Source: a virus
Lineage: Duplodnaviria; Heunggongvirae; Uroviricota; Caudoviricetes
Direction: 5' to 3' (one strand)
Length of the DNA stretch: 40,062 nucleotides
Virus record (IMG/VR): IMGVR_UViG_2671180458_000005
Below are positions 3,261-40,062 of the stretch, one piece after another. Each line of letters opens with the position of its first letter. Positions within the stretch are counted from its first letter, which is position 1. A program made the position numbers and the translations under genes. The notes beneath the pieces were generated by a model. That model was not told where the DNA came from, made no database searches, and worked only from the letters and a program-made list of their open reading frames with translations.

Positions 3261-3565
3261 CCCGCCCGGAAATTCGCTTTCTGATGCGACTTGCGCTCCG
3301 TCTGGGGCGCACCTTATCCGAACTGCGGCACAGCCTGAGTGCGAGCGAGGCGATGATGTGGATGGAGTTCGACAGGATATCCCCGCTGGGTGATGAGCGC
3401 GGGGATATCCGTAATGCACAGATCGTGAAAGCGGTTTTCGGGGCACAGGGGATGAATGTTGCACTGAAGGACGCCATGCTCTGCTGGGGCGAGGATGAGG
3501 ATAAGCCGGAGGTGGATCCGTTTGCGGCGCTGGAACACGCGCTGAGCTTTGCAGCACAGTCATGA
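3257..3565 (+). CDS. Frameshift extension of tail assembly chaperone (G-T fusion C-terminal part)
   Basis: -1 frame relative to G is open from 3257 to stop at 3565; conserved G/GT arrangement upstream of tape measure in long-tailed phages. Confidence 0.6.
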   Translation, partial: VARPEIRFLMRLALRLGRTLSELRHSLSASEAMMWMEFDRISPLGDERGDIRNAQIVKAVFGAQGMNVALKDAMLCWGEDEDKPEVDPFAALEHALSFAAQS

Positions 3566-3612
3566 ATGATGAGAACCGCTGAGGCGGTTTTTTTACGCCC
3601 GGAGAAAGGTGA

Positions 3613-6600
3613 ATGGCGACGTTACGTGAACTGATTATCAAAATTTCGGCAAATTCACAGTCATTCCAGTCGGAGATCCAGCGGGCGTCCCGTATGGGCA
3701 GTGAATATTACCGGACCCTGCAGAATGGCGGACGTCAGGCTGCTGCGGCAGCCAGGGAGCAGCGCCGGGCTCTGGCTGAGCTGAACAGCCAGTTGACGGA
3801 AATCCGCGCTTCGGCTGTCGGAATGACCGGTGCGTTTGCCGGTGCCTTTGCCACCGGACACCTGATTTCGCTGGCGGATGAATGGAGCTCCGTGAATGCC
3901 CGTCTGAAACAGGCGTCGCAGTCATCGGATGAATTTTCGTCATCACAGAAAGTGCTGATGGACATCAGCCAGCGGACAGGCACCGCATTTTCGGATAATG
4001 CGGCCCTGTTTGCCCGTTCGGCTGCCTCGATGCGTGAATATGGTTACAGTGCTGATGATGTGCTGAAGGTGACGGAGGCCATTTCGACAGGGCTGAAAAT
4101 TTCCGGTGCCAGTGCGGCAGAGGCGGGTTCGGTGATCACCCAGTTCAGCCAGGCGCTGGCACAGGGGGTGTTGCGCGGCGAGGAATTTAATTCGGTCAAT
4201 GAAAGTGGGGACCGGATCATTCGCGCACTGGCTGCAGGCATGGGCGTGGCCCGTAAGGATCTGAAGGCGATGGCGGACGATGGTCAACTGACGGCGGATA
4301 AAGTCGTTCCCGCGTTAATCAGCCAGCTGGGGATATTGCGTGATGAATATGCAGCCATGCCGGAAACGGTGTCTGACGGGATCACGAAGGTGGAAAACGC
4401 CTTTATGGCCTGGGTGGGCGGCGCGAATGAGGCCAGCGGAGCGACGAAAACGCTCTCCGGCGCACTGAACGGTGTGGCCGGAAATATTGATACCGTGGCA
4501 ACAGCTGCGGGTGTGCTGGTTGCTGTCGGGGTGGCCCGGTACTTTGGTAATCTGGCTTCCGGAGCGATGTCTGCCACGGCAGGACTTGTGACCGCTGCAC
4601 GTAATGAAGTGGCACTGGCTGAGGCCCAGTTAAGGGGAACGCAGATTGCCACGGCGCGGGCAAGGGCAGCCGTGTACCGGGCTCAGCAGGCTGTGGCGGC
4701 AGCCCGCGGGACTGAGATGCAGATTGCGGCAGAGGCCCGTCTGGCGGTCACACAGGAACGCCTGAACAGAAATATTGCTGCCAGAACCGCCGCCCAGAAT
4801 GCGCTGAACAGTACAACGGCGGTGGGCTCACGTCTGATGAGCGGTGCGCTGGGACTGGTTGGAGGCGTACCCGGACTGGTGATGCTGGGAGCTGCCGCAT
4901 GGTATACGCTGTACCAGAATCAGGAACAGGCCAGGGAGTCTGCGCACCAGTATGCACTGACGATTGATGAAATCGCGCATAAAACGCCATCAATGTCTCT
5001 GCCTGAAGCCTCAGATAATGAAGGGCGAACACGGGAGGCGCTGACAGAGCAGAACCGGCTGATTGATGAGCAGGCCAGCCGGGTGAAATCCCTGCAGGAA
5101 AAAATCGCCGGGTATCAGTATGTGCTGGCTAATCCGGGCTGGACGACCGGTAACGGCTTCATGATAAACCATCTGACATCGGTGAAAACTGTAACGGAAG
5201 GGCTTGCTCAGGCAACAGAGCAGTTTGCTGTTGAGCAGTCCCGTCTGGCACAGATGCAGGAAAAAGCGCAGTCCATTCAGGATGTGCTTGCCGGACTGGA
5301 AGAGCGCCGTGTTGTGTTAATTCGTCAGCAGGCGGCAGAGCAGAATAAAGCGTATCAGTCACTGCTGATCATGAACGGTCAGCATACGGAATTCAACCGC
5401 CTGCTGGGGCTGGGTAATGAACTGCTGCAACAGCGTCAGGGACTGGCGAGTGTACCGCTGCGACTGCCACAGGCCACTCTGGATGATAAACAGCAGGGCG
5501 CCCTGAATAACACAGAGCGTCAACTTGCCCTGTCCCGGCTGAAAGGGGAAGAAAAAGAGCGTGCCCGGCTGGGGTATGCGGCGGATGACCTTGGTCTGGT
5601 GGGGGATACGTATCAGGAGGCGAGGCAGCGTTACATCCGTAATTCGATGGAAGCCTGGCGCAATAATGAGGCGAATAAACCCAAATCCCGGGCCGGAAAA
5701 TCAGGGGCGGAAAAAGCGGAAGACAGTTTTTCCCGTCTGCTGAAGCAGCAGAAGGAACAACTGGCACTGGCCGGGAAGAATACAGAACTGGCAAAACTGA
5801 AATACCAGACCTCGCAGGGCGAGCTGAAAACCCTGACGGAGATACAGAAGCAGGAGCTGCTGCGCAATGCAGCCCTGATTGACCAGAAGAAAATTCGGGA
5901 GCAGTTACGGGCCCGGGAGGAGACCCTGAAAAATGATAATGCAGACGCAAGGGCATCAAATGACGCTGAGCTGCTGGGGTACGGGCAGGGTGAGCGGGTC
6001 CGTGAACGGATGCGGGAGCTGCAGCAGATTCGTGACGGCTACCGCCAGAAGGATGCGGACCTGCAGTCTCAGTATCAGACAGGGGATATCAGTGAGGATT
6101 TTTACAGACAGGCGCTGGCGCAGAATGCGCAGTATCTGAGTGAACGCCTTAAAGACCAGGAGGCTTTTTATGCCGAATCGGATGCGCAGCGTGCTGACTG
6201 GCAGAAAGGGCTGCAGGAAGGGCTAAGTAACTGGGTGGACAGCGCATCAGATTACGCTTCACAGGCAGCACAGCTTGCGACAGACGGTATCTCAGGGATG
6301 GTGAATAACATCACGGAGATGCTGAACGGAAATAAAGTGGAATGGCGCAGCTGGGCTGCATCAATCCTGCAGGAAATATCAAAAGTTCTTATGAATGCGG
6401 CCATTGTCAACGGCATTAAGATGGCGGCAAACAGTATGTCCGGTGCAGGAGGATTTTTCGGCAGTATAGGCAACTGGCTGGGTGGCGCGGTGGCAAATGC
6501 AAAAGGCGGCGTTTATACCTCGGCAAACCTGAGTGCATACAGTAACAGTATTGTGGACACGCCCACGTACTTTGCCTTTGCAAAAGGGGCAGGGCTGATG

Positions 6601-24891: not shown

Positions 24892-25449
24892 TCAACAATG
24901 AATTTTTAGTAATTGCTCCACAGTCATATTTTTAATTGCGCTCCGGTTTACAAGAGTCCAGCCTTGTTTCTCCAGATAAAACTGGAAGGTATCCAGGGTG
25001 CAGACCATTGCGCCGTCCGGAACGGTTTCAGTGAATTTGATATTGCCGTGTTCGTCGAGACGGATAACCAGGGTACGTCCGTCCCCGTGAATCATTTTGT
25101 CGGGAGACGGGGCGTTATTCTGGCGCAGTTCTTTCTCCATGCGATCGAACTCAGCGATGTAGGCTTCTTTAAATGCAGCGGCTTTTTTGCCGGTGAAGCC
25201 CATCACCAGGAAAACGAAGCCGTTTTTGGTGATTTGGTACATTGGGAGTTTGCGACTGGTTGAGTCGGTATATTCGCTCGACACAAAATTGTGCTCAGTG
25301 AATTTTGCTGAACAGTCCAGATTGCGAATTTTATCCAACACTCGTTCGTGGCGTTTACCAAAGAACTCAGCGATCGCAATAGACGTAGTGACAGCGCGTC
25401 CATTTTCGATGGTTACGTCAGGGTGAGAAAGGGCAGGGATAGTAGCCAT
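24892..25449 (-). CDS. Rha-family phage regulatory protein
   Basis: Motifs FFGKRHERVLDKIRNL and PMYQITKNGFVFLVMGFTGKKAAAFKEAYIAEFDRME fit Rha family; start set at internal ATG 25449 (GAGG upstream); the longer ORF to 25746 crosses a hairpin plus T-run, so the true start is uncertain. Confidence 0.6.
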   Translation of the reverse strand: MATIPALSHPDVTIENGRAVTTSIAIAEFFGKRHERVLDKIRNLDCSAKFTEHNFVSSEYTDSTSRKLPMYQITKNGFVFLVMGFTGKKAAAFKEAYIAEFDRMEKELRQNNAPSPDKMIHGDGRTLVIRLDEHGNIKFTETVPDGAMVCTLDTFQFYLEKQGWTLVNRSAIKNMTVEQLLKIHC

Positions 25450-25929
25450 GATGGCAGCCTCGATAGTCAGTTTAAATAACTCACCACCAAGGCTTTCCAC
25501 GACCATAAGGGTGGTGAGACGTACAGGGGTGGAAATACCGGTGACTACCGAAACCGGCCAGCCTTTCGGCTGCCCTGCACGCCCCACCATAATCTGAATG
25601 TGGCTGTGCATTACGCATAAAAAAACCGCCTGAGCGCGGTTATGCGCAGTAGTCATCATCGGGTTTCCACGCCCGGCACCCGCTTTATGAGGTGCAGGTG
25701 CACTATAATTCCACCCATTCTGGTTTTCAATAGCTACATTCAACATTTTCTCTTACCCTTCATCACCGAAGTGAACTTTGTTGATGCAGTGCCTGGTGCC
25801 TCCAGGTGACGTTAACCAGTTAACAATTAACGCCGGATTGTTAGTTGATGTCTGTTACGCCAGTAAAAGACCGCTTGTTTTAACTGTTCCGCGTGCGCTT
25901 AGCCGCATTCACCGCATCACAAAATTCAC

Positions 25930-25992
25930 TTTAAAAAGGGTGGCAGAGCAGTCACGGAGTAGAACTGATGCCACCAAAGACTACACATGGGT
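25930..25992 (-). ncRNA. dicF: DicF-like small RNA
   Basis: Minus strand reads ...UCAGUUCUACUCCGUGACUGCUCUGCCACCCUUUUU, near-identical to the 3-prime two-thirds of E. coli DicF as recalled, including terminator hairpin and U-run; downstream flank also matches; 5-prime end less conserved and not mapped. Confidence 0.65.
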
Positions 25993-31666: not shown

Positions 31667-31835
31667 TTTTGGTTCAACTAAATACAACGTCAGTTTTGAA
31701 GAATGGCATGAACTGTTAATGGACTATGCAGAGTTACGTGGTGGCAGTGCTGCTGATGCTGAAGCATGGCGTGATGATTATGAAGCAGGAAAAACTCCGG
31801 TCGAAGCATATTGTGATGAGTGGGGCGATGAATGA
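31659..31835 (+). CDS. Small acidic protein (hypothetical)
   Basis: 58 aa MADFGSTKYNVSFEEWHELLMDYAELRGGSAADAEAWRDDYEAGKTPVEAYCDEWGDE; overlaps both neighbours by 4-8 nt; not in ORF track. Confidence 0.5.
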   Translation: MADFGSTKYNVSFEEWHELLMDYAELRGGSAADAEAWRDDYEAGKTPVEAYCDEWGDE

Positions 31836-32347
31836 GCGAGATTAATTATCAGGAAGGGCATGAAACGGCAGGGCAGGCAAAACCAGTTGCATGGCGATAT
31901 CGCTACGTGAAAAAAGACGTTACAGACTTTCAGGGGAAGCCGTGGGCTGGTGACTGGAAATATGTACCGACAAAAGAGGATTGTAACGACAGGCCGAACT
32001 ATGAAATTCAGGCCTTATTCATCGGCCCGCCAGTCCCGGTGACATCAGAAGGACTGGTTAAAGCTGTGCGCTTTTATGAACAGGTAAAGCGTGAGAATCC
32101 GCCAGTCGAAACAGGAGCATGGAAGGATGCTGTTGACTGGGTGCTCAGAGAGGCCTGCTGTGCTGCCATTCTGGGTAAAGCCGACAATCCACCAGCATCC
32201 GGCAATCAGGTTAGCGAATTAGCAATGTGGGTTAAACGGCTGGTCAGCCAACTGAAAAAAGCGAAGCCGGACTGCAAATTACCGGATAAGGCGATGGACT
32301 ACCTGAAGCGAAACGGACTGATAAACGAGGAGGATATTTTACGATGA
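31832..32347 (+). CDS. Hypothetical protein
   Basis: 171 aa; ATGA overlap with upstream ORF; a truncated copy of its first codons lies at 31323..31372. Confidence 0.55.
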   Translation: MSEINYQEGHETAGQAKPVAWRYRYVKKDVTDFQGKPWAGDWKYVPTKEDCNDRPNYEIQALFIGPPVPVTSEGLVKAVRFYEQVKRENPPVETGAWKDAVDWVLREACCAAILGKADNPPASGNQVSELAMWVKRLVSQLKKAKPDCKLPDKAMDYLKRNGLINEEDILR

Positions 32348-32427
32348 CCTGGCCTGAAGCGTTCATAACGGTAGGAATTGCAATGGCGGTGGCGCTGGTG
32401 GTGTATTCGATTTGCCGCTGGGGATAA
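32344..32427 (+). CDS. Putative 27-aa hydrophobic membrane peptide
   Basis: MTWPEAFITVGIAMAVALVVYSICRWG; ATGA overlap with upstream gene; followed by hairpin. Confidence 0.3.
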   Translation: MTWPEAFITVGIAMAVALVVYSICRWG

Positions 32428-32439
32428 ATTGCCGAAAAA

Positions 32440-32476
32440 AGATCCCGCCACAAACATGAGCCGGGATCTTTGATTT
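32440..32476 (+). terminator. Possible intrinsic terminator
   Basis: AGATCCCG...CGGGATCT stem with 14-nt loop followed by T-rich tract. Confidence 0.4.
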
Positions 32477-32549
32477 ATATAGCCTACGAATCCGCAGTAA
32501 GAGAGGGGCAGACGGTTTATTCTAACACCGGAATGATGTGGGTAAAAGT

Positions 32550-32849
32550 TTATAAGAAATCGGTTTCATAACTTTGCCCACCATGATAGATACCGACAAT
32601 AAAGACTTTTCTGCCATCAACGGCAAAAGCAATAATCGTTCTGTGGCGGAAATGAGTTACCCGCATCCCCTGGCGAATATCATCGCGTTTATTGCCCCGA
32701 TGCGGGAATGTAGAAAACCCATCAAGATAATCAAGAAGCGCATTGGCATAATTGTCAGCAATGACGTTCCCTGCTTTCTCCGTTATATATCTGTGCAGGT
32801 TGATTATTTGTTGTTCGGCCTCAGGAGTAATGATGACTTCATATGTCAT
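32550..32849 (-). CDS. parE: ParE-family type II toxin
   Basis: 99 aa; immediately downstream of ParD-like gene on same strand. Confidence 0.7.
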   Translation of the reverse strand: MTYEVIITPEAEQQIINLHRYITEKAGNVIADNYANALLDYLDGFSTFPHRGNKRDDIRQGMRVTHFRHRTIIAFAVDGRKVFIVGIYHGGQSYETDFL

Positions 32850-32854
32850 GCAGA

Positions 32855-33112
32855 TTACTTCCCGGATCGAATCGCGGCGCGAACCTGTGAAATGGAGCGT
32901 CCGTTGTTTGGGTTTTCGCGGATAGAATCAAGAGAGGGGGCGGCTGAATGCGTTAACCACGCTTCGATTGCTTTATCGCGCTCATTCAGTGCGCGAAGCC
33001 CTTCACGAATGACCTCGCTTTCTGAAGCATAGGCACCGGAAGCCACACGGGCGCGCACCATGTCAGCCATCTCGTTAGTTAATGTAATGCTGAATTGTTG
33101 GGTTGTACGCAT
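32855..33112 (-). CDS. parD: ParD-family (RHH) antitoxin
   Basis: Start at ATG 33112 (MRTTQQFSITLTNEMADMVRARV...), GAGG upstream. Confidence 0.65.
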   Translation of the reverse strand: MRTTQQFSITLTNEMADMVRARVASGAYASESEVIREGLRALNERDKAIEAWLTHSAAPSLDSIRENPNNGRSISQVRAAIRSGK

Positions 33113-33247
33113 GGTAAACCTCACGGAGTAGGATAGAACACTATTCGATGATAGCACGCTGCCTGTTGACGACAACAGAAATCAGAGACAATATTGCCGC
33201 ACGCCAGCCTGAACAACTGGCACCTGCTGCGCCAGCAGAGACAACCG

Positions 33248-33526
33248 ATGGCGCAAGATACCAAATTACACAATTCGGATAACTCCGCCGCCCCTGCCAG
33301 CAGGCACGGGCGGCGTTCTCATGCATTCAAATCTGACTGGTTCCAGCATGACCCATGCACTGAAGAACAGGCCGAATGGCTGATCCAGTGCTACCGCAGA
33401 CGTGGTTACGAGTTTCAGAAAGATCTCAGCTTCGATCGTCGTCACTGGATAATCTCCGTCAGGCTCCCTTATTCCGAACGCCCACCGCGTCCGTCCCGCA
33501 CATTCCAGCAGCGTATCTGGAGGTAA
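33248..33526 (+). CDS. Hypothetical protein
   Basis: ORF ends 1 nt before the GTG start of the next gene; start uncertain (TTG 33194 or ATG 33248). Confidence 0.35.
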   Translation: MAQDTKLHNSDNSAAPASRHGRRSHAFKSDWFQHDPCTEEQAEWLIQCYRRRGYEFQKDLSFDRRHWIISVRLPYSERPPRPSRTFQQRIWR

Positions 33527-33527
33527 C

Positions 33528-34577
33528 GTGCGGGTATTACTTCGACCTGTTCTGGTACCGGAACTCGGGATGGTGCTCCTTAAGCCGGGCCGTGAATCAA
33601 TGTCAGCATTCCATAACGGCAGAATATTGGTGGAGCCGGAACCGAAAAACATGCGCGGTCTGCCGTCCGGAGTCGTTCCTGCCGTTCGCCAGCCGCTGGC
33701 AGAGGATAAAACATTACTGCCATTTTTCAGCGATGAGCGGGTTATTCGTGCAGCAGGTGGTGCAGGTGCACTGTCTGACTGGTTATTACGTCACGTGAAA
33801 TCCTGCCAGTGGCCACACGGCGATTATCATCACAGCGAAACCGTCATTCACCGTTACGGTACCGGCGCGATGGTGTTGTGCTGGCACTGTGACAACCAGC
33901 TGCGCGACCAGACATCAGAATCACTCGATCAACTTGCTCAGCAGAATCTGGCAGTCTGGATGATTGATGTTATACGTCACGCAATAAGCGGTACGCAGGA
34001 GAGGGAGTTATCGCTGGCCGAATTATCCTGGTGGGCGGCCTGCAATCAGGTGGTGGATGCACTACCTGAGGCAGTAGCGCGTCGTTCGCTGGGATTACCG
34101 GTGGAAAAAATCCGCTCCGTATACCGTGAGAGTGACATCGTACCGGGAGAACAGACAGCCATCAGCATACTGAAGCAGCGCACAAAAAATATTGCGCTGC
34201 CACTTCACGTCCACCAGCAACAAAATCCACCACAGAAAAAAACGGTTGTCAGTATCGCCGTTGATCCGGAGTCTCCTGAATCGTTTATGAAGCGGCCTAA
34301 ACATCGCCGTTGGGTTAATGAGAAATACACGCGCTGGGTAAAGACACAGCCGTGTGCGTGTTGTGGTAAGCCAGCTGACGATCCGCATCACCTGATTGGT
34401 CATGGTCAGGGGGGAATGGGAACAAAAGCCCACGATATTTTCACGCTACCGCTGTGTCGGGAGCATCATAACGAGCTTCATGCGGATCCGCTGGCGTTCG
34501 AAGAAAAGCATGGTTCTCAGGTTGATTTAATTTTTCGTTTTCTTGATCACGCCTTTGCAACCGGTGTGCTTGGGTAA
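33528..34577 (+). CDS. YdfU-like protein with C-terminal Cys/His HNH-like motif (DUF968-like)
   Basis: 349 aa; GTG start behind GGAGG; C-terminal CACCGKPADDPHHLIGHGQGG...LCREHHNELHADP. Confidence 0.55.
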   Translation: MRVLLRPVLVPELGMVLLKPGRESMSAFHNGRILVEPEPKNMRGLPSGVVPAVRQPLAEDKTLLPFFSDERVIRAAGGAGALSDWLLRHVKSCQWPHGDYHHSETVIHRYGTGAMVLCWHCDNQLRDQTSESLDQLAQQNLAVWMIDVIRHAISGTQERELSLAELSWWAACNQVVDALPEAVARRSLGLPVEKIRSVYRESDIVPGEQTAISILKQRTKNIALPLHVHQQQNPPQKKTVVSIAVDPESPESFMKRPKHRRWVNEKYTRWVKTQPCACCGKPADDPHHLIGHGQGGMGTKAHDIFTLPLCREHHNELHADPLAFEEKHGSQVDLIFRFLDHAFATGVLG

Positions 34578-34590
34578 AAGGGGGGTATTG

Positions 34591-34965
34591 ATGTGTATAG
34601 AGTTTGTTTTGCCTTACCCGCCGACGGTGAATACTTACTGGCGACGTCGTGGCAGCACATATTTTGTATCAAAAGCCGGGGAGCGTTATCGCCGGGCAGT
34701 GGCGTTTATTGTTCGCCAGCAGCGACTGAAATTAAGCCTGTCCGGACGGCTGGCAATAAAAATTATTGCAGAGCCACCGGATAAGCGTCGTCGTGACCTG
34801 GACAACATTCTGAAAGCACCGCTGGATGCGCTGACGCATGCGGGACTGCTTATCGACGATGAACAGTTTGATGAAATCAATATTGTACGTGGTCAGCCAG
34901 TATCTGGTGGACGTCTGGGGGTGAAGATTTACCCCATAATGCTTGAAGGGCAGGTCAAAAAATGA
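34591..34965 (+). CDS. rusA: Holliday junction resolvase RusA
   Basis: LPYPPTVNTYWRRRG and DKRRRDLDNILKAPLDALTHAGLLIDDEQ motifs; start ATG 34591 behind AAAAGGGGGG. Confidence 0.8.
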   Translation: MCIEFVLPYPPTVNTYWRRRGSTYFVSKAGERYRRAVAFIVRQQRLKLSLSGRLAIKIIAEPPDKRRRDLDNILKAPLDALTHAGLLIDDEQFDEINIVRGQPVSGGRLGVKIYPIMLEGQVKK

Positions 34966-35783
34966 AACTGGAAGATTTACCGAAATACTACTCCCCAAAA
35001 TCCCCCGGCCTGACTGATGCATCGGCCTCAACGTCAAAAGATGCGCTGAGTATCACTGATGTGATGGCCGCGCAGGGCATGACACAGAATCGGGCTGAGA
35101 TGGGGTTTTCTGCGTTCCTTGGGAAAATGGGCATTAGTATGAATGACAGAGAGCGGGCAACAGAATTGCTGACAGAATATGCACTCAGTCGGTGTGATCG
35201 CGTGGCGGCGTTAAGAAAACTCCCGGCAGAAATAAAACCGGCAGTGATGCGTATTATGGCTTCGTATGCGTTTGAAGATTATGCCCGTAGCGCGGCGAGC
35301 AAAAAACAGTGCCCCTGCTGTCACGGAAAAAAATTTATTGAAAGCGAGGTTTTTACAAACAAGATCCAGTATCCGGATGGTAAGCCGCCAGTGTGGGCAA
35401 AGTGCACAAAAGGCGTGTATCCGTCTTACTGGGAGGAATGGAAAAAAGTCAGGGAGGTGGTAAAAGTTGCCTGTCCGGAGTGTGGCGGAAAGGGGGAGGT
35501 TTCCACCGCCTGTAAAGATTGTCGTGGGCGCGGTGTTGCCATTCATCGTGAAGAGTCGGAAAAACAGGGTGTGCCGGTTTTCAGAAACTGCCAGCGTTGT
35601 GGTGGGCGTGGCTATGAAAGATTACCTTCAACGGAGGCATTTAATGCCATATGTAATGTAACCGATGCCATATCTCTTGATACATGGAAAAAAACAGTTA
35701 AACGTTTTTACGATACGCTGGTGGTGCAGTTTGATATTGAAGAAGCATGGGCAGAACAACAACTGAAAAAGGTGACCAGATAG
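34962..35783 (+). CDS. Late-gene antitermination protein Q (multi-zinc-finger type)
   Basis: 273 aa with several CxxC pairs; ATGA overlap with rusA; followed by late promoter-like region and terminator. Confidence 0.65.
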   Translation: MKLEDLPKYYSPKSPGLTDASASTSKDALSITDVMAAQGMTQNRAEMGFSAFLGKMGISMNDRERATELLTEYALSRCDRVAALRKLPAEIKPAVMRIMASYAFEDYARSAASKKQCPCCHGKKFIESEVFTNKIQYPDGKPPVWAKCTKGVYPSYWEEWKKVREVVKVACPECGGKGEVSTACKDCRGRGVAIHREESEKQGVPVFRNCQRCGGRGYERLPSTEAFNAICNVTDAISLDTWKKTVKRFYDTLVVQFDIEEAWAEQQLKKVTR

Positions 35784-35863
35784 CTTTGTTGATTTTTCCC
35801 GAATCTGTGGTAAATTTGCCCTAACGATGGGCGTTTTATGCCTGACGTTAGAAGATTTTTACA

Positions 35864-35886
35864 CCCGTCGCCAGGCGGGTTTTTTT
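35864..35886 (+). terminator. Rho-independent terminator downstream of Q (tR-prime analogue)
   Basis: CCCGTC-GCCA-GGCGGG followed by TTTTTTT about 80 nt after Q stop. Confidence 0.6.
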
Positions 35887-36008
35887 ATGACTGAAATCAC
35901 GCCAGTACAGTAAACGCGCTGGTGGCGGTGAATACCGGTCTTTCAGCTTGCTGGCTTTTTTGACAAGAGTTATTGGTGTGTCACGTTAACCGGAAAAGGG
36001 AAAAAGAC

Positions 36009-36206
36009 ATGCTGATACAGCAGGATATGACCGAAACCGCCAGAGTGGTGTTTAATGAATTAAGCGTCACCGAACCGGCGACAGTCGGGGAGATTGCGCA
36101 GAATACTTACCTTTCACGCGAACGCTGCCAGTTAATACTGACCCAGCTTGTTATGGCGGGTCTGGCAGACTATCAGTTCGGTTGTTACAGACGCCTTCAG
36201 TCATGA
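36009..36206 (+). CDS. Small winged-helix DNA-binding protein (hypothetical)
   Basis: 65 aa from ATG 36009; segment VGEIAQNTYLSRERCQLILTQLVMAGLADY looks wHTH-like. Confidence 0.4.
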   Translation: MLIQQDMTETARVVFNELSVTEPATVGEIAQNTYLSRERCQLILTQLVMAGLADYQFGCYRRLQS

Positions 36207-36356
36207 AGGCTTTTTTATTTGTGGTAAATGGGCGGCTGGTGGGTGTTAGGGGCACTCACCAGCCATCTGCTCATGCGTCTGGATCACAAGCAAACCTCAG
36301 GCCCACTGCTTTGCGCAAAAGCAGAATGAGCCTATCAGAGACAGGCTTAATGATCC

Positions 36357-37415
36357 ATGCTTAACACTGTAAAAATATCCAGTTGTGAGTTAATCAACGC
36401 CGACTGCCTGGAATTTATCCGGTCGTTACCCGAAAATTCTGTTGACCTGATAGTCACGGATCCGCCGTACTTTAAAGTGAAGCCTGAGGGCTGGGATAAC
36501 CAGTGGAAGGGCGACGATGATTACCTGAAGTGGCTGGACCAGTGTCTGGCGCAGTTCTGGCGGGTGCTGAAACCTGCCGGAAGTCTTTACCTGTTCTGTG
36601 GCCATCGCCTGGCATCTGATATCGAAATCATGATGCGTGAACGCTTCAGTGTGCTGAACCATATTATCTGGGCAAAGCCGTCCGGACGCTGGAACGGGTG
36701 CAACAAGGAAAGCCTGAGGGCGTATTTCCCCGCCACAGAGCGCATTCTGTTCGCGGAACATTATCAGGGGCCGTATCGTCCGAAAGATGCCGGGTATGAG
36801 GCGAAGGGCAGGGCACTGAAACAGCATGTGATGGCTCCGCTGATTGCTTACTTTCGTGATGCGCGTGCTGCCCTGGGGATAACGGCAAAACAGATAGTGG
36901 ATGCCACAGGAAAGAAAAACATGGTGTCGCACTGGTTCAGTGCCAGTCAGTGGCAACTGCCGAACGAAAGTGATTATCTGAAATTACAGGCGCTGTTTGC
37001 CCGGGTGGCAGAAGAGAAGCATCAGCGGGGTGAACTGGAGAAGCCCCACCACCAGCTGCTGGAGACGTATACTTCACTGAACCGGCAGTATGCGGAACTG
37101 CAGAGTGAATATAAGCATCTGCGGCGGTATTTTGGCGTGACGGCGCAGGTGCCGTACACCGATGTGTGGACGCATAAACCGGTGCAGTACTATCCCGGGA
37201 AACATCCGTGCGAAAAACCGGCAGAAATGCTGCAGCAGATAATCAGCGCGAGCAGTCGTCCGGGGGACCTGGTTGCAGATTTTTTCATGGGGTCGGGTTC
37301 GACAGTCAAAGCCGCGATGGCACTGGGGCGTCGTGCAACTGGTGTTGAGCTGGAGACTGAACGTTTTGAGCAGACGGTCAGGGAAGTTCAGGATTTAGCC
37401 AGTCAGAACGGATGA
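36357..37415 (+). CDS. DNA methyltransferase (N6-adenine/N4-cytosine type, no cognate endonuclease seen)
   Basis: 352 aa; motif IV LIVTDPPY near N-terminus and motif I FMGSGST near C-terminus. Confidence 0.85.
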   Translation: MLNTVKISSCELINADCLEFIRSLPENSVDLIVTDPPYFKVKPEGWDNQWKGDDDYLKWLDQCLAQFWRVLKPAGSLYLFCGHRLASDIEIMMRERFSVLNHIIWAKPSGRWNGCNKESLRAYFPATERILFAEHYQGPYRPKDAGYEAKGRALKQHVMAPLIAYFRDARAALGITAKQIVDATGKKNMVSHWFSASQWQLPNESDYLKLQALFARVAEEKHQRGELEKPHHQLLETYTSLNRQYAELQSEYKHLRRYFGVTAQVPYTDVWTHKPVQYYPGKHPCEKPAEMLQQIISASSRPGDLVADFFMGSGSTVKAAMALGRRATGVELETERFEQTVREVQDLASQNG

Positions 37416-37455
37416 TATTGCAGGATTAGTTACGTACCGTTATTATCCTGCACTC

Positions 37456-37531
37456 GGCCCTTTAGCTCAGTGGTGAGAGCGAGCGACTCATAATCGCCAG
37501 GTCGCTGGTTCAAATCCAGCAAGGGCCACCA
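37456..37531 (+). tRNA. tRNA with CAU anticodon (Ile2-lysidine type or Met), ileZ-like
   Basis: 76 nt; acceptor GGCCCTT/AAGGGCC; anticodon loop CTCATAA; T-loop GGTTCAAATCC; ends CCA. Confidence 0.8.
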
Positions 37532-37540
37532 TATCACATA

Positions 37541-37617
37541 CCGCCATTAGCTCATCGGGATAGAGCGTCAGCCTTCGAAGCTGGTTGCGCGGGGTTCGAG
37601 TCCTCGATGGCGGTCCA
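37541..37617 (+). tRNA. tRNA-Arg (anticodon UCG), argN-like
   Basis: 77 nt; acceptor CCGCCAT/ATGGCGG; anticodon loop CTTCGAA; GGTTCGAGTCC T-arm; ends CCA. Confidence 0.7.
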
Positions 37618-37630
37618 TTATCGGTATTCA

Positions 37631-37707
37631 GCGTTGTTAGCTCAGCCGGACAGAGCAATTGCCTTCTAAGCAATCGGTCACTGGTTCGAATCCAGTACAA
37701 CGCGCCA
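37631..37707 (+). tRNA. tRNA-Arg (anticodon UCU), argO-like
   Basis: 77 nt; acceptor GCGTTGT/ACAACGC; anticodon loop CTTCTAA; GGTTCGAATCC T-arm; ends CCA. Confidence 0.8.
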
Positions 37708-37721
37708 TATTTATTTACCAG

Positions 37722-37746
37722 GCTCGCTTTTGCGGGCCTTTTTTGT
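37722..37746 (+). terminator. Possible terminator after tRNA cluster
   Basis: GGCTCGC-TTTT-GCGGGCC imperfect hairpin followed by TTTTTT. Confidence 0.45.
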
Positions 37747-37876
37747 ATCCGCGCCACGCCCGGCGCATATCAACCACAGAGCCTTTCGGGGGTGAGCTTA
37801 CGGAGTGGTCAGTGTGACTTTCTCTGTGGGCAGATCGCTCCCGGGCGTTGGCTCACCCACCTAAAGGAACGTCACG

Positions 37877-38308
37877 ATGTTTGGTATTTTCAAAAAGAAA
37901 ACCCGCAGAGCAGCAGCGGAAATTAAAAAGTTTGAGAAACGTGATCTGGCACAGGCGGTTATTAATGCTGCCTACCTGGTAGCCTATGCAGATGGTGAAT
38001 GTGAGGCTTCAGAGAAAGCGAAGATCGAGCAGGTCTTGCGTAACCAGCCAGCGTTGTCCGCGTTTACGTCAGAAATTAATGCTATCAGTGCCACGATCAC
38101 AGGTCAGCTTGACACCAACTTTAAAATTGGTCGTCGAGCGGCGTTGCGTGAAATTGAAGATGTGAAACACGATACGCGTGAAGCGGAAGATGTGCTGGAT
38201 GTGGCGGTGGCCATTGCTGAAGCAGATGGTGAAATTGAGCCGGAAGAGCGTAAGGTTCTGGAAGAGATTGCTGGTGTTCTTGGCCTGCGACTGGAGAACC
38301 ACCTGTGA
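37877..38308 (+). CDS. TerB-like domain protein
   Basis: 143 aa; two AxADGE motifs (AYADGECEASEKAKI and AEADGEIEPEERKVLEEI) typical of TerB fold; AAAGGA RBS. Confidence 0.6.
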   Translation: MFGIFKKKTRRAAAEIKKFEKRDLAQAVINAAYLVAYADGECEASEKAKIEQVLRNQPALSAFTSEINAISATITGQLDTNFKIGRRAALREIEDVKHDTREAEDVLDVAVAIAEADGEIEPEERKVLEEIAGVLGLRLENHL

Positions 38309-38469
38309 CGGTAAAACTGCGTCTGGCCGCTGTGGCACTCCTGCTGTTTCTGGTGGTGATGGTGGATTTCACCAGCAGGATCATGTCGGTGCTGGCGGAT
38401 GGAGTGCTGGTGGTCGGTATTGTGGTGGTGCTTTTTCCTTTGGTGAAAAAGGACATGCCAGGTAGTTAG
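38305..38469 (+). CDS. Small hydrophobic membrane protein, translationally coupled to TerB-like gene
   Basis: 54 aa VTVKLRLAAVALLLFLVVMVDFTSRIMSVLADGVLVVGIVVVLFPLVKKDMPGS; GTGA overlap; not in ORF track. Confidence 0.45.
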   Translation: MTVKLRLAAVALLLFLVVMVDFTSRIMSVLADGVLVVGIVVVLFPLVKKDMPGS

Positions 38470-38717
38470 CCGGGTATCAGTCATGCCCCGAAAATTTTAA
38501 ATGTCTCACAATTCAGACGGTTGACAGTTGTCTGTTTTGCGGGGAGTTTGTTAAAAGAAACAGGCATGGTGAATCCCCCTGAGCGGAGGGGCGACTGGTG
38601 CATTAGGTGTTATCTTTGATACCCAGGAAAGTAAACGCGCGGGTTTGGTGGCACCGGGCTGAACTCACCGGGAGGCACCCGGCATCATGCGCATGATGAT
38701 ACAGATACGCGGCTTTA

Positions 38718-38741
38718 GCCCCTCTCCGGAGGGGCTTTTAT
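38718..38741 (+). terminator. Rho-independent terminator
   Basis: GCCCCTC-TCCG-GAGGGGC followed by TTTTATAT. Confidence 0.6.
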
Positions 38742-38770
38742 ATGAATTTTGTAAGATATGAGTAAACTAA

Positions 38771-39106
38771 TTATGGACACTGTTGTTTTAGTCCGTAAGG
38801 GCATATTTGCAGAATGCAATGATTATTAAAGCATTCTTTCAATACGTTATCTGAATTTGCAGGACATTCCTGGCTGTTTTTGATTAAATCCCAGAATCTT
38901 TTATTGAATGGTACAACGTTGTAAATGGTTACAGGTAGCACTTTGTTATTAAGTACGATACCTGTGTGAGTCAACGTAAATATACTTTCAGGAGGTAAGA
39001 AAACATCCGATTGATACCAGATTATTAATTTTATTTTACTCCATATGGCTGAAAAAGATATTCCGCATGATGGCTGGATAACTGTATCAATCACAATCCA
39101 CTTCAT
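38771..39106 (-). CDS. Hypothetical Cys-containing protein in low-GC island
   Basis: 111 aa; strong SD TAAGGAGG 7 nt upstream on minus strand; AT-rich surroundings. Confidence 0.55.
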
Positions 39107-39367
39107 TTAGCCTCCTTATTTATGCTGTGCTGGTGATGTTCTGAAAAGTATAAATGATAATTTTGAATGTAAACCATAGAGCAGAATTATTTTTCTGATG
39201 TTGTTTATTGTTTATTTAAATACAGGTTTTTATATCCCGTCTTGTAGTTTATCCATGCATACCTGCTTTATGATGAGGTTTTCATTTAAGGTATGGTTTT
39301 GTGTTTTTTTTTTCTGTATTTCATGTCAGGTATTTTAAAGAATTGTTTTTAATATGGTGGAAAGAAC

Positions 39368-40062
39368 CATGGCATTTAAACACTATGACGTGGTCAGGGC
39401 GGCGTCGCCGTCAGACCTTGCGGAGCGACTGACTCAAAAACTGAAGGAGGGGTGGCAGCCATTTGGCAGCCCTGTCGCCATCACGCCTTATACCCTGATG
39501 CAGGCCATTGCGGCGGAAGGTGATGTCACCACACCTGTGGTGGTGAAGCCGTCGGATGGAGAAGGCACAGTAATCAGCGCCACCAGTGACCCGGAGTATT
39601 ACTTTGTTGTGGTTCTGGCAGGGCAGTCAAACGGCATGTCGTATGGTGAAGGCCTTCCGCTGCCGGAGACATATGACCGTCCGGACCCGCGTATTAAGCA
39701 GCTGGCGCGCCGCAGTACGGTGACACCGGGCGGTGCCGCCTGTAAGTATAACGACATTATTCCGGCGGACCATTGTCTGCATGATGTGCAGGACATGAGC
39801 CGTCTTAACCATCCGAAAGCGGACCTGTCAAAGGGGCAGTACGGAACCGTGGGGCAGGGGCTGCATATCGCCAAAAAACTGCTGCCGTTTATACCGGCGA
39901 ATGCGGGTATTTTGCTGGTTCCGTGCTGCCGTGGTGCTTCGGCATTCACAACGGGTGCAGACGGCACATACAGCGAATCAGCCGGTGCATCGGAAAATTC
40001 ACTGCGCTGGGGTGTGGGTAAGCCGCTGTATCAGAATTTGGTGAGCCGGACTAAAGCCGCAC
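39368..40062 (+). CDS. NanS-p-like sialate O-acetylesterase (DUF1737 N-terminus), 5-prime part; continues beyond window
   Basis: N-terminus MAFKHYDVVRAASPSDLAERLTQKLKEGWQPFGSPV and following SGNH-like region (VVLAGQSNG) resemble Stx-phage nanS-p genes as recalled; no stop before window end. Confidence 0.65.

Follow-up and report, generated by a model that had tools for sequence, protein, structure and literature searches.

The stretch of DNA analysed here, referred to as the window, is the 40,062-nt Caudoviricetes sequence of the IMG/VR record IMGVR_UViG_2671180458_000005, and within it we focused on positions 37877-39367. In all probability, this interval is a mosaic accessory ('moron') segment in the late operon of an stx-negative lambdoid Escherichia coli prophage that otherwise resembles Shiga toxin (Stx) phages, and it consists of three separate, previously described units. 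These are the gene pair tciA-tciB, the small RNA STnc100 and an IraL-type anti-adaptor of RssB, all of which come from described families and are in this sense already known. The features of the segment and of its surroundings are listed below, with the source of each assignment in brackets.

35789-35886, plus strand: late promoter PR'-like region and first terminator (alignment with lambda, terminator scan)
37456-37707, plus strand: three tRNA genes, CAT, Arg-TCG and Arg-TCT (ARAGORN, Rfam, RefSeq annotation)
37720-37747, plus strand: intrinsic terminator after the last tRNA gene (terminator scan, blastn segments)
37877-38308, plus strand: tciA, 143 amino acids, TerB family (Pfam, PHROGs, PDB match, AlphaFold2 model)
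38305-38469, plus strand: tciB, 54 amino acids, DUF3927 (Pfam, PHROGs, alignment)
38535-38747, plus strand: small RNA of the STnc100 family (Rfam RF02076)
38684-38697, no strand: perfect palindrome ATCATGCGCATGAT (sequence scan)
38771-39106, minus strand: iraL-type gene, 111 amino acids (NCBIfam NF007393, PDB 8TWD)
39107-39175, minus strand: iraL promoter and 5' untranslated region (match to the iraL 5' end of strain CFT073 mapped by RACE, the rapid amplification of cDNA ends)
39369-40062, plus strand: start of a nanS-p-like gene (DUF1737 and SASA esterase) that continues past the window end (Pfam, RefSeq annotation)

The three open reading frames (ORFs) of the segment lie where the initial annotation had placed them, and the low guanine-plus-cytosine (GC) content of the region around the divergent ORF was confirmed (30-37% across 38700-39399). 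The same annotation held that none of the components was recognisable as a characterised system. This view could not be upheld. Profile searches with all three proteins returned TerB (PF05099), DUF3927 (PF13064) and IraM (NF007393), each above the curated cut-off; the 111-residue protein belongs to the IraM/IraL family, the palindrome-rich stretch is STnc100, and the pair corresponds to TciA/TciB of phage P1 (PHROGs 632 and 1470). With these identities the apparent unrecognised system resolves into annotated parts. At identical loci RefSeq labels the genes tellurite resistance TerB family protein, DUF3927 family protein, anti-adapter protein IraM and SASA family carbohydrate esterase. The same 1.7 kb are present in 10 complete RefSeq genomes (at least 97% of the length, 98.0-99.7% identity), and these are the only ones among 5426 complete E. 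coli genomes to have the full combination of tciAB, STnc100 and iraL. At one of the compared loci the iraL cassette occurs without tciAB, and at the locus of E. coli ABU 83972 tciAB occurs without iraL. Since each unit is found without the others and the whole set in so few genomes, we consider the units to be independent.

The stx2AB slot and the late operon

The initial annotation had put this cargo into the slot where Stx phages carry their toxin genes, and the comparison with the Stx2c prophage of the O157:H7 strain Rafaela_II bears this out. There, the order is tRNA-Ile, tRNA-Arg, tRNA-Arg, stx2A, stx2cB, STnc100, an IraM-family gene on the minus strand and the SASA esterase gene. In blastn, window positions 37418-37755 are 91% identical and positions 38502-40062 are 78% identical to this prophage, leaving only 37756-38501 (746 bp, containing tciAB) as non-homologous; these 746 bp replace 1325 bp with stx2AB. 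In other words, tciAB is allelic to stx2AB in one and the same late-operon slot. In both Stx2c and Stx2a prophages the stx2AB cassette occupies this slot, following the Ile/Arg/Arg tRNA genes and a terminator and preceding STnc100, the IraM-family gene and nanS-p, although the encoded proteins are unrelated to TciA and TciB. The left edge of the exchangeable slot is marked by the tRNA terminator, as homology to the Stx2c prophage stops at 37755.

The tRNA trio of the window is the same as that upstream of stx2 in the O157:H7 Stx2c prophage. Its first member (37456-37531) is called Met by ARAGORN according to its CAT anticodon, whereas RefSeq labels the identical gene tRNA-Ile. Following the RefSeq label, we read it as a tRNA of the ileX/ileZ type, which decodes Ile after lysidine modification. 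P1 likewise has a CAT tRNA-Ile, directly after tciC. In two lambdoid prophages of the enterohaemorrhagic E. coli (EHEC) type, a gene for an AraC-family (HTH_18) regulator, with the small post-Q ORF on one side and tciA on the other, takes the place of the methylase gene and the tRNA genes. This makes the segment upstream of tciAB exchangeable as well.

As to the transcription of the segment, the Q gene (PF03589) is located at 34962-35783 and is directly followed by PR'-like elements, namely a -35-like TTGATT (35789-35794), a -10 TAAATT (35811-35816) and a lambda-type pause element AACGAT (35823-35828). When aligned, lambda PR' and the window downstream of Q have in common the block GGTAAATTTG.C..AACGATGGG, which covers the -10 and the pause element. 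Some 45 nt past this shared block there is a strong tR'-like terminator (stem 35863-35880 and a T-run), and the leader from the PR'-like promoter would be short, roughly 60-70 nt. The StxS small RNA of Stx1 phages is of about this size. Together with the further intrinsic terminators at 36193-36210 and 37720-37739, there are three in all between the late promoter and tciA, while a simple consensus-matcher scan of 35700-39450 returned no sigma-70-like site on the plus strand. Because tciAB has no detected promoter of its own and lies behind three terminators downstream of a lambda-like PR', we infer late expression. Most likely, tciAB is made mainly by Q-modified polymerase in lytic growth, when Q antitermination opens the late operon, as for stx2. 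The lysis genes share this Q-dependent operon with tciAB, as seen from the RefSeq annotation of the identical locus.

An additional small gene was noticed in this part of the window. Between tR' and the DNA methylase gene, positions 35973-36210 encode a 77-residue protein that matches phrog_331 (8.6e-38), a family of unknown function, and gives weak winged-helix TrmB/MarR matches below the cut-offs. It has its own terminator (36193-36210), and the same small gene follows Q-type genes in two other prophages.

The IraL-type anti-adaptor and STnc100

The 111-residue protein scores 161.1 bits against NCBIfam NF007393 (cut-off 121) and matches the IraM structure PDB 8TWD at E 6.6e-33. Relative to IraM of E. 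coli K-12, which is of the same family, it is 63% identical over 107 residues in an ungapped local BLASTP alignment (60% globally, 67/111), compared with 89-90% identity to the widespread iraL type. Ten of the 13 residues listed as RssB contacts in the IraM-RssB crystal structure (bioRxiv 10.1101/2023.01.07.523045) are identical, these being I4, I6, W22, K26, I42, C14, F18, W30, I61 and Y62. The flanks of the gene do not align with those of K-12 iraM, and no STnc100 remnant was found beside the latter.

The closest described counterpart is IraL of the uropathogenic strain CFT073, with which the window gene shares family, length class and a conserved mapped promoter and 5' untranslated region. 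The promoter consists of a -35-like GGTTTA (39175-39170) and a -10 TATACT (39152-39147), with the inferred transcription start at 39139. The 32-nt RACE 5' end of CFT073 iraL (PMC4045071) matches window positions 39139-39108 with six substitutions. An iraL locus with two substitutions relative to the RACE sequence shows a single base difference from the window over the 60 nt further upstream. Together with its upstream region, the iraL cassette is present at 90-95% identity in 1432 of the 5426 complete E. coli genomes. The perfect Shine-Dalgarno sequence attributed to this ORF is indeed there (AAGGAGG, 5 nt upstream of the ATG), and it is stronger than the AAGGAAA with which it was compared. 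A PhoP box was sought upstream of the gene by eye and rejected, only a non-canonical TGTTTA-N1-TGTTTA and single GGTTTA half-sites being seen; with no PhoP-box-like repeat, control by Mg2+ as in K-12 iraM is therefore not expected.

Both close relatives have been characterised, and binding to RssB together with stabilisation of RpoS has been shown for CFT073 IraL, in log phase (PMC4045071), and for K-12 IraM (bioRxiv 10.1101/2023.01.07.523045). Carrying this function over, the gene of the window, apparently driven by its own sigma-70 promoter in a divergent AT-rich cassette, should encode a protein that binds RssB, stops RpoS delivery to ClpXP and raises RpoS in growing lysogens. By the same analogy, it should represent a lysogenic-conversion function. 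In the Rafaela_II Stx2c prophage, the interval from the STnc100 copy downstream of stx2cB to nanS-p contains an IraM-family gene on the opposite strand (locus 3504-3827), whose product is 72% identical to the window protein. A putative RpoS stabiliser is therefore found beside the toxin genes in this Stx2c prophage.

The stretch between tciB and iraL was initially described as about 250 bp of GC-rich, structured, palindrome-containing DNA with a terminator. The structure is borne out by a full-length match of 38535-38747 to Rfam RF02076 (all 206 model positions, 139.4 bits with the threshold at 47); the GC richness is not, as the content of 48-53% equals that of the surroundings. The folding z-score of the stretch taken alone is only -1.64. 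The terminator is real and is STnc100's own (stem 38717-38736 followed by TTTTAT). As for the palindrome ATCATGCGCATGAT, it is present one base away from the initially given position. The window contains four perfect 14-nt palindromes compared with 2.4 +/- 1.3 in shuffled sequences, which is not beyond chance. Moreover, the left half of this one serves as the 3' strand in the helix closing the STnc100 core, in which CAUCAUGC pairs with GCAUGGUG at 38564-38571 according to both the Rfam consensus and the minimum-free-energy fold. A role of the palindrome as a protein-binding operator was accordingly discarded: its occurrence is within chance, it is imperfect in other copies (7-copy alignment) and the closing helix accounts for it. 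A small ORF inside STnc100 (ATG at 38566, MVNPPERRGDWCIRCYL) was likewise judged non-coding, by eye, as the homologous frame is of variable length among the E. coli copies and the Pantoea copy lacks a corresponding start. Some STnc100 copies of EDL933 do show ribosome footprints (PMC5331693).

All related loci that we examined had STnc100 copies. They follow stx2cB in O157:H7 and tciB in ABU 83972, precede iraL in two other strains, and lie between Q/tRNA and tciA in a lambdoid prophage of Pantoea. The block CTCACAATTCAG..GTTGAC(A/T)GTTG(T/C)CTG (38497-38534), which is located upstream of the Rfam start and contains a perfect TTGACA, is conserved in all E. coli copies irrespective of what precedes it (tciB, stx2B or a small ORF). 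Between tciB and nanS-p, ABU 83972 has two tandem STnc100 copies of different subtypes and then an AsxR match on the opposite strand, with no iraL. The window copy is chimeric: its 5' part is 81-84% like the post-tciB type, whereas from the core hairpin on it is 96-98% identical to ABU 83972 copy 2 (the post-stx2 or pre-nanS-p type). This is consistent with recombination inside the repeat, and the copy looks like a product of the two ABU 83972 subtypes, having the 5' part of one and the 3' part of the other.

STnc100 has been encountered in several studies. Strain EDL933 expresses 11 copies without induction, and for one of them a Northern blot gave confirmation (PMC5331693). Stx2 phages have a copy 75 nt downstream of stx2B (PMC12370729), and the post-stx2 copy overlaps the Hfq-bound small RNA EcOnc27/sRNA103 (PMC12711010). 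A 2026 preprint relates STnc100 to the small RNA PasD of enteropathogenic E. coli and states that the function of the Pas small RNAs has not been elucidated (bioRxiv 10.64898/2026.05.13.724894). The window copy has the full-length model match, the terminator and the position upstream of nanS-p in common with EcOnc27/sRNA103, differing from it in being chimeric. By analogy with these homologous copies, which are expressed in uninduced lysogens, it is probably an Hfq-associated small RNA with its own terminator. We also considered whether STnc100 might be a PR'-leader ('6S-like') RNA, given that the Pantoea copy is located shortly downstream of Q, after one tRNA gene. However, the window has a separate lambda-like PR'/tR' directly after Q and no good -10 after the conserved TTGACA.

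The TerB-DUF3927 pair

TciA is a TerB-family protein. Residues 26-138 match PF05099 with 61.2 bits (cut-off 24.4), the match to phrog_632 has an E-value of 1.8e-69, and the protein is 42-52% identical to P1 TciA. A phmmer comparison with the solved TerB structure 2JXU aligned residues 14-137 (35.6 bits, E 1e-7). The AlphaFold2 model, built with 29 homologues, is all-alpha with seven helices (predicted local distance difference test score 86.2), and its best Foldseek matches are the TerB-like structures 2H5N (template modelling score 0.57-0.65, probability 1.00) and 2OU3, both at weak E-values (0.011 and 1.9). Among the 29 homologues D117, G118, E46 and E124 are invariant and D39 and G40 nearly so. 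The protein has two acidic ADGE motifs and a basic N-terminus, MFGIFKKKTRR. TciA thus shares the Pfam family, the all-alpha fold and the repeated acidic motifs with TerB of the ter operon, but the similarity to the latter is remote and TciA has no terZ/A/C/D/E neighbours. Residues 87-138 are also matched by the TerB-like region of DjlA; the two proteins have the TerB-like domain in common, whereas the J-domain of DjlA is absent from TciA. In DjlA a membrane anchor and the TerB-like domain are on one chain, an arrangement analogous to TciB plus TciA.

Two candidate features of TciA were rejected. A zinc finger is not supported, since the Pfam zf-HC2 match is weak (20.7 bits, below 22.2) and the single Cys leaves no HxxxCxxC site; a fused variant owes its database name 'zinc-finger family protein' to this weak match. 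Neither of two TerB-DUF3927 fusions was accepted as a true one or used: P0124 shows an apparent frameshift where the two genes meet (...LENTCDGKTAP...), and in P0186 the divergence sets in earlier, in the C-terminal part of TciA.

The initial annotation described the stop codon of the TerB-like gene as overlapping the GTG start of a small membrane-protein gene, and this is what the sequence has: the tciA TGA and the tciB GTG overlap by 4 nt (GTGA) within cTGTGAcgg, implying translational coupling of the two genes. TciB matches DUF3927 (PF13064) with 59.5 bits against a cut-off of 25, as well as phrog_1470, labelled 'TciB-like'. It is strongly hydrophobic (maximum Kyte-Doolittle value 3.05 for a 15-residue window) and has two hydrophobic stretches, and it is predicted to be a two-helix membrane hairpin. 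It can be aligned with P1 TciB, over the whole length, and with eight other partners, and the motifs DFT(S/G), LADG and WP are conserved. The P1 locus is organised in a similar way, with a TerB-family gene immediately followed by a 54-residue DUF3927 gene (1-nt overlap in P1, 4 nt here), and in both phages the pair adjoins tRNA genes. However, P1 has a third small gene, tciC (35 codons), and its pair lies in an accessory region rather than in a lambdoid late operon. No tciC-like gene was found here: no plus-strand ORF of at least 30 amino acids starts at the tciB stop, and the next feature is STnc100.

The proposal that the TerB-like and membrane-protein genes form a conserved two-gene unit proved correct, and the unit is by no means confined to the present phage. 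Starting from TciA homologues, we found the pair in 10 phages and prophages representing at least five unrelated backbones, namely lambdoid, 186/P2-like, P1, jumbo and N4-like phages. In all 10, the second gene starts -4 to +3 nt from the end of the first stop and encodes a 50-60-residue two-helix protein alignable with TciB. Starting instead from divergent DUF3927 proteins, TerB was directly upstream in all five places, with the same 4-nt overlap. A tblastn search of the phage collection with TciB gave no matches, presumably owing to the low-complexity filter, and the partners were therefore read from the loci directly. Nearly all sequences obtained for TciB in a word-indexed protein search were from E. 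coli, so that this search gave no information on distant relatives. The gene order in the Pantoea lambdoid prophage is Q, tRNA, STnc100, TerB, DUF3927 and holin. An E. coli 186-like and a Serratia P2-like prophage have the pair behind cox/fil in the early lytic operon, and it is also carried by two N4-like phages and by jumbo phages of Salmonella and Erwinia. Among the 5426 complete E. coli genomes, 803 have tciAB, with a median of four copies and up to eight in EHEC.

The pair was also seen to adjoin phage-borne tRNA genes in four unrelated backbones (P1, an Erwinia jumbo phage, the Pantoea prophage and window positions 37456-38469). It may be that tRNA genes and the pair both simply gather in accessory-gene hot spots.

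Possible roles of TciA and TciB

What such a widespread pair might do can be approached through its organisation and genomic context. TciB may form a hairpin in the inner membrane, its two basic ends being on the cytoplasmic side, and may tether the cytosolic, TerB-fold TciA to the membrane, the acidic ADGE motifs of TciA being the presumed metal-binding sites of the TerB family. Such a complex would act at the membrane during lytic growth. It is tempting to speculate, and we do so tentatively, that TciA-TciB is a conserved lytic-cycle membrane module, composed of a two-helix anchor and a TerB-fold, presumably metal-binding sensor, of temperate and virulent enterobacterial phages, and not a lysogenic-conversion or defence pair. 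N4-like and jumbo phages are generally regarded as virulent. The presence of the pair in these phages and its early-operon position in 186/P2-like prophages agree with a lytic role and argue against one that serves the lysogen. Until programmed lysis sets in, TciA-TciB might, for instance, preserve the inner membrane or the ion balance of the infected cell, or work against a host response.

Several points weigh against our view of the segment and of its parts. The TerB genes of one Pseudomonas and one Vibrio phage lack the small partner gene, so that in some lineages TciA apparently does not need TciB. The P1 genes tciA/B/C were named by homology only and are non-essential (PMC10695390), and we found no experiment on TciA or TciB in the searchable literature. 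The promoter scan was a simple consensus matcher and may have missed a weak or non-sigma-70 promoter of tciAB. Similarly, the TTGACA at 38521-38526 lacks a good -10 at a distance of 16-18 nt, so the transcription start of STnc100 is not fixed by sequence. Finally, the anti-adaptor of the window shares no more than about 90% of its residues with the studied IraL type, and it differs at three of the 13 IraM contact positions (T13S, H63N and I64V).

The initial annotation favoured a different role for tciAB, that of a two-gene stress, superinfection-exclusion or abortive-infection module protecting the lysogen. Location in a moron slot and the tight linkage of the two genes are in line with this idea, as is the fact that TerB belongs to the plasmid ter cluster, implicated in tellurite resistance and phage inhibition (PMC9603915). 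Nonetheless, we regard it as rather unlikely. In PADLOC-DB v2 the only match was a partial, 15-bit one of TciA to PDC-S48 (E 0.002), with none for TciB or the IraL-type protein. The lack of a detected promoter and the three terminators after PR' do not suit a gene pair that has to work in the lysogen, nor does the early lytic operon of the 186/P2-like prophages, and the N4-like and jumbo genomes have no lysogen to protect. Up to eight copies per EHEC genome would also be odd for a specific defence.

It is improbable, too, that TciB is a holin- or antiholin-like protein through which TciA-TciB tunes the timing of lysis. This reading draws on the size and two-helix character of TciB, on the Q-dependent operon common to tciAB and the lysis genes in the window, and on the Pantoea prophage, in which the pair is directly upstream of the holin, endolysin and spanin genes. 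However, Pfam gives DUF3927 alone for TciB and no holin family. Moreover, in three other settings the pair is not next to lysis genes: in the N4-like phages its neighbours are genes for a replication initiation protein and a MoxR-like ATPase, in the 186/P2-like prophages it follows cox/fil, and in the jumbo phages it is found at the genome start beside tRNA genes.

Another reading takes the three units as one integrated regulatory system, with STnc100 or antisense read-through, for example, coupling tciAB and iraL. STnc100 and iraL do converge, their ends being 24 nt apart (38747 and 38771), and the hairpin they share has no T-run on the minus strand, so that iraL transcripts could extend antisense into STnc100. 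We nevertheless consider such a system very improbable, because the units are separable: stx2 occurs with STnc100 and an IraM-like gene, iraL occurs without tciAB, tciAB occurs with two STnc100 copies and no iraL, and the full set is as rare as described above.

Least credible is the notion that tciAB confers tellurite resistance, as TerB-family membership and the RefSeq and PHROG names would have it, since these names rest on homology only, the ter determinant is a multigene operon of which no other gene is annotated in the 13.7 kb of the identical locus (approximately window 31700-40062 and beyond) or appears in the Pfam scan of the window ORFs from 35.0 kb onwards, the neighbours of tciA are tRNA genes, DUF3927, the small RNA, iraL and nanS-p rather than members of a terZABCDE operon, and the pair is found in phages of many hosts with no obvious link to tellurite.

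Two further observations concern other parts of the window. On the minus strand, positions 25507-25989 contain three consecutive Rfam matches, to C4 antisense RNA (79 bits), isrK (63.5 bits) and DicF (61 bits), which immediately precede, with partial overlap, an antirepressor-like gene with Rha/Ash domains (ORF 24892-25746, minus strand). Although it is part of a lambdoid prophage, the whole of 24892-25989 resembles an immI-like region for antirepressor control in the style of P1/P7. Also on the minus strand, a ParE-toxin/ParD-antitoxin pair (PF05016, PF03693; 32550-33112) is inserted upstream of the DUF968-RusA-Q block.

The identities of the units and the equivalence of their slot bear on the biology of these prophages in several ways. 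As an alternative to stx2AB that is bounded by the tRNA terminator and STnc100, tciAB helps to explain how toxin and non-toxin cargo is swapped between EHEC prophages. The IraL-type RpoS stabiliser is located beside the lysis genes, and the prophage thus probably alters the general stress response of its host. TciA-TciB is very widespread, with up to eight copies per EHEC genome and five phage types, and it is a cheap and well-defined target for functional study.

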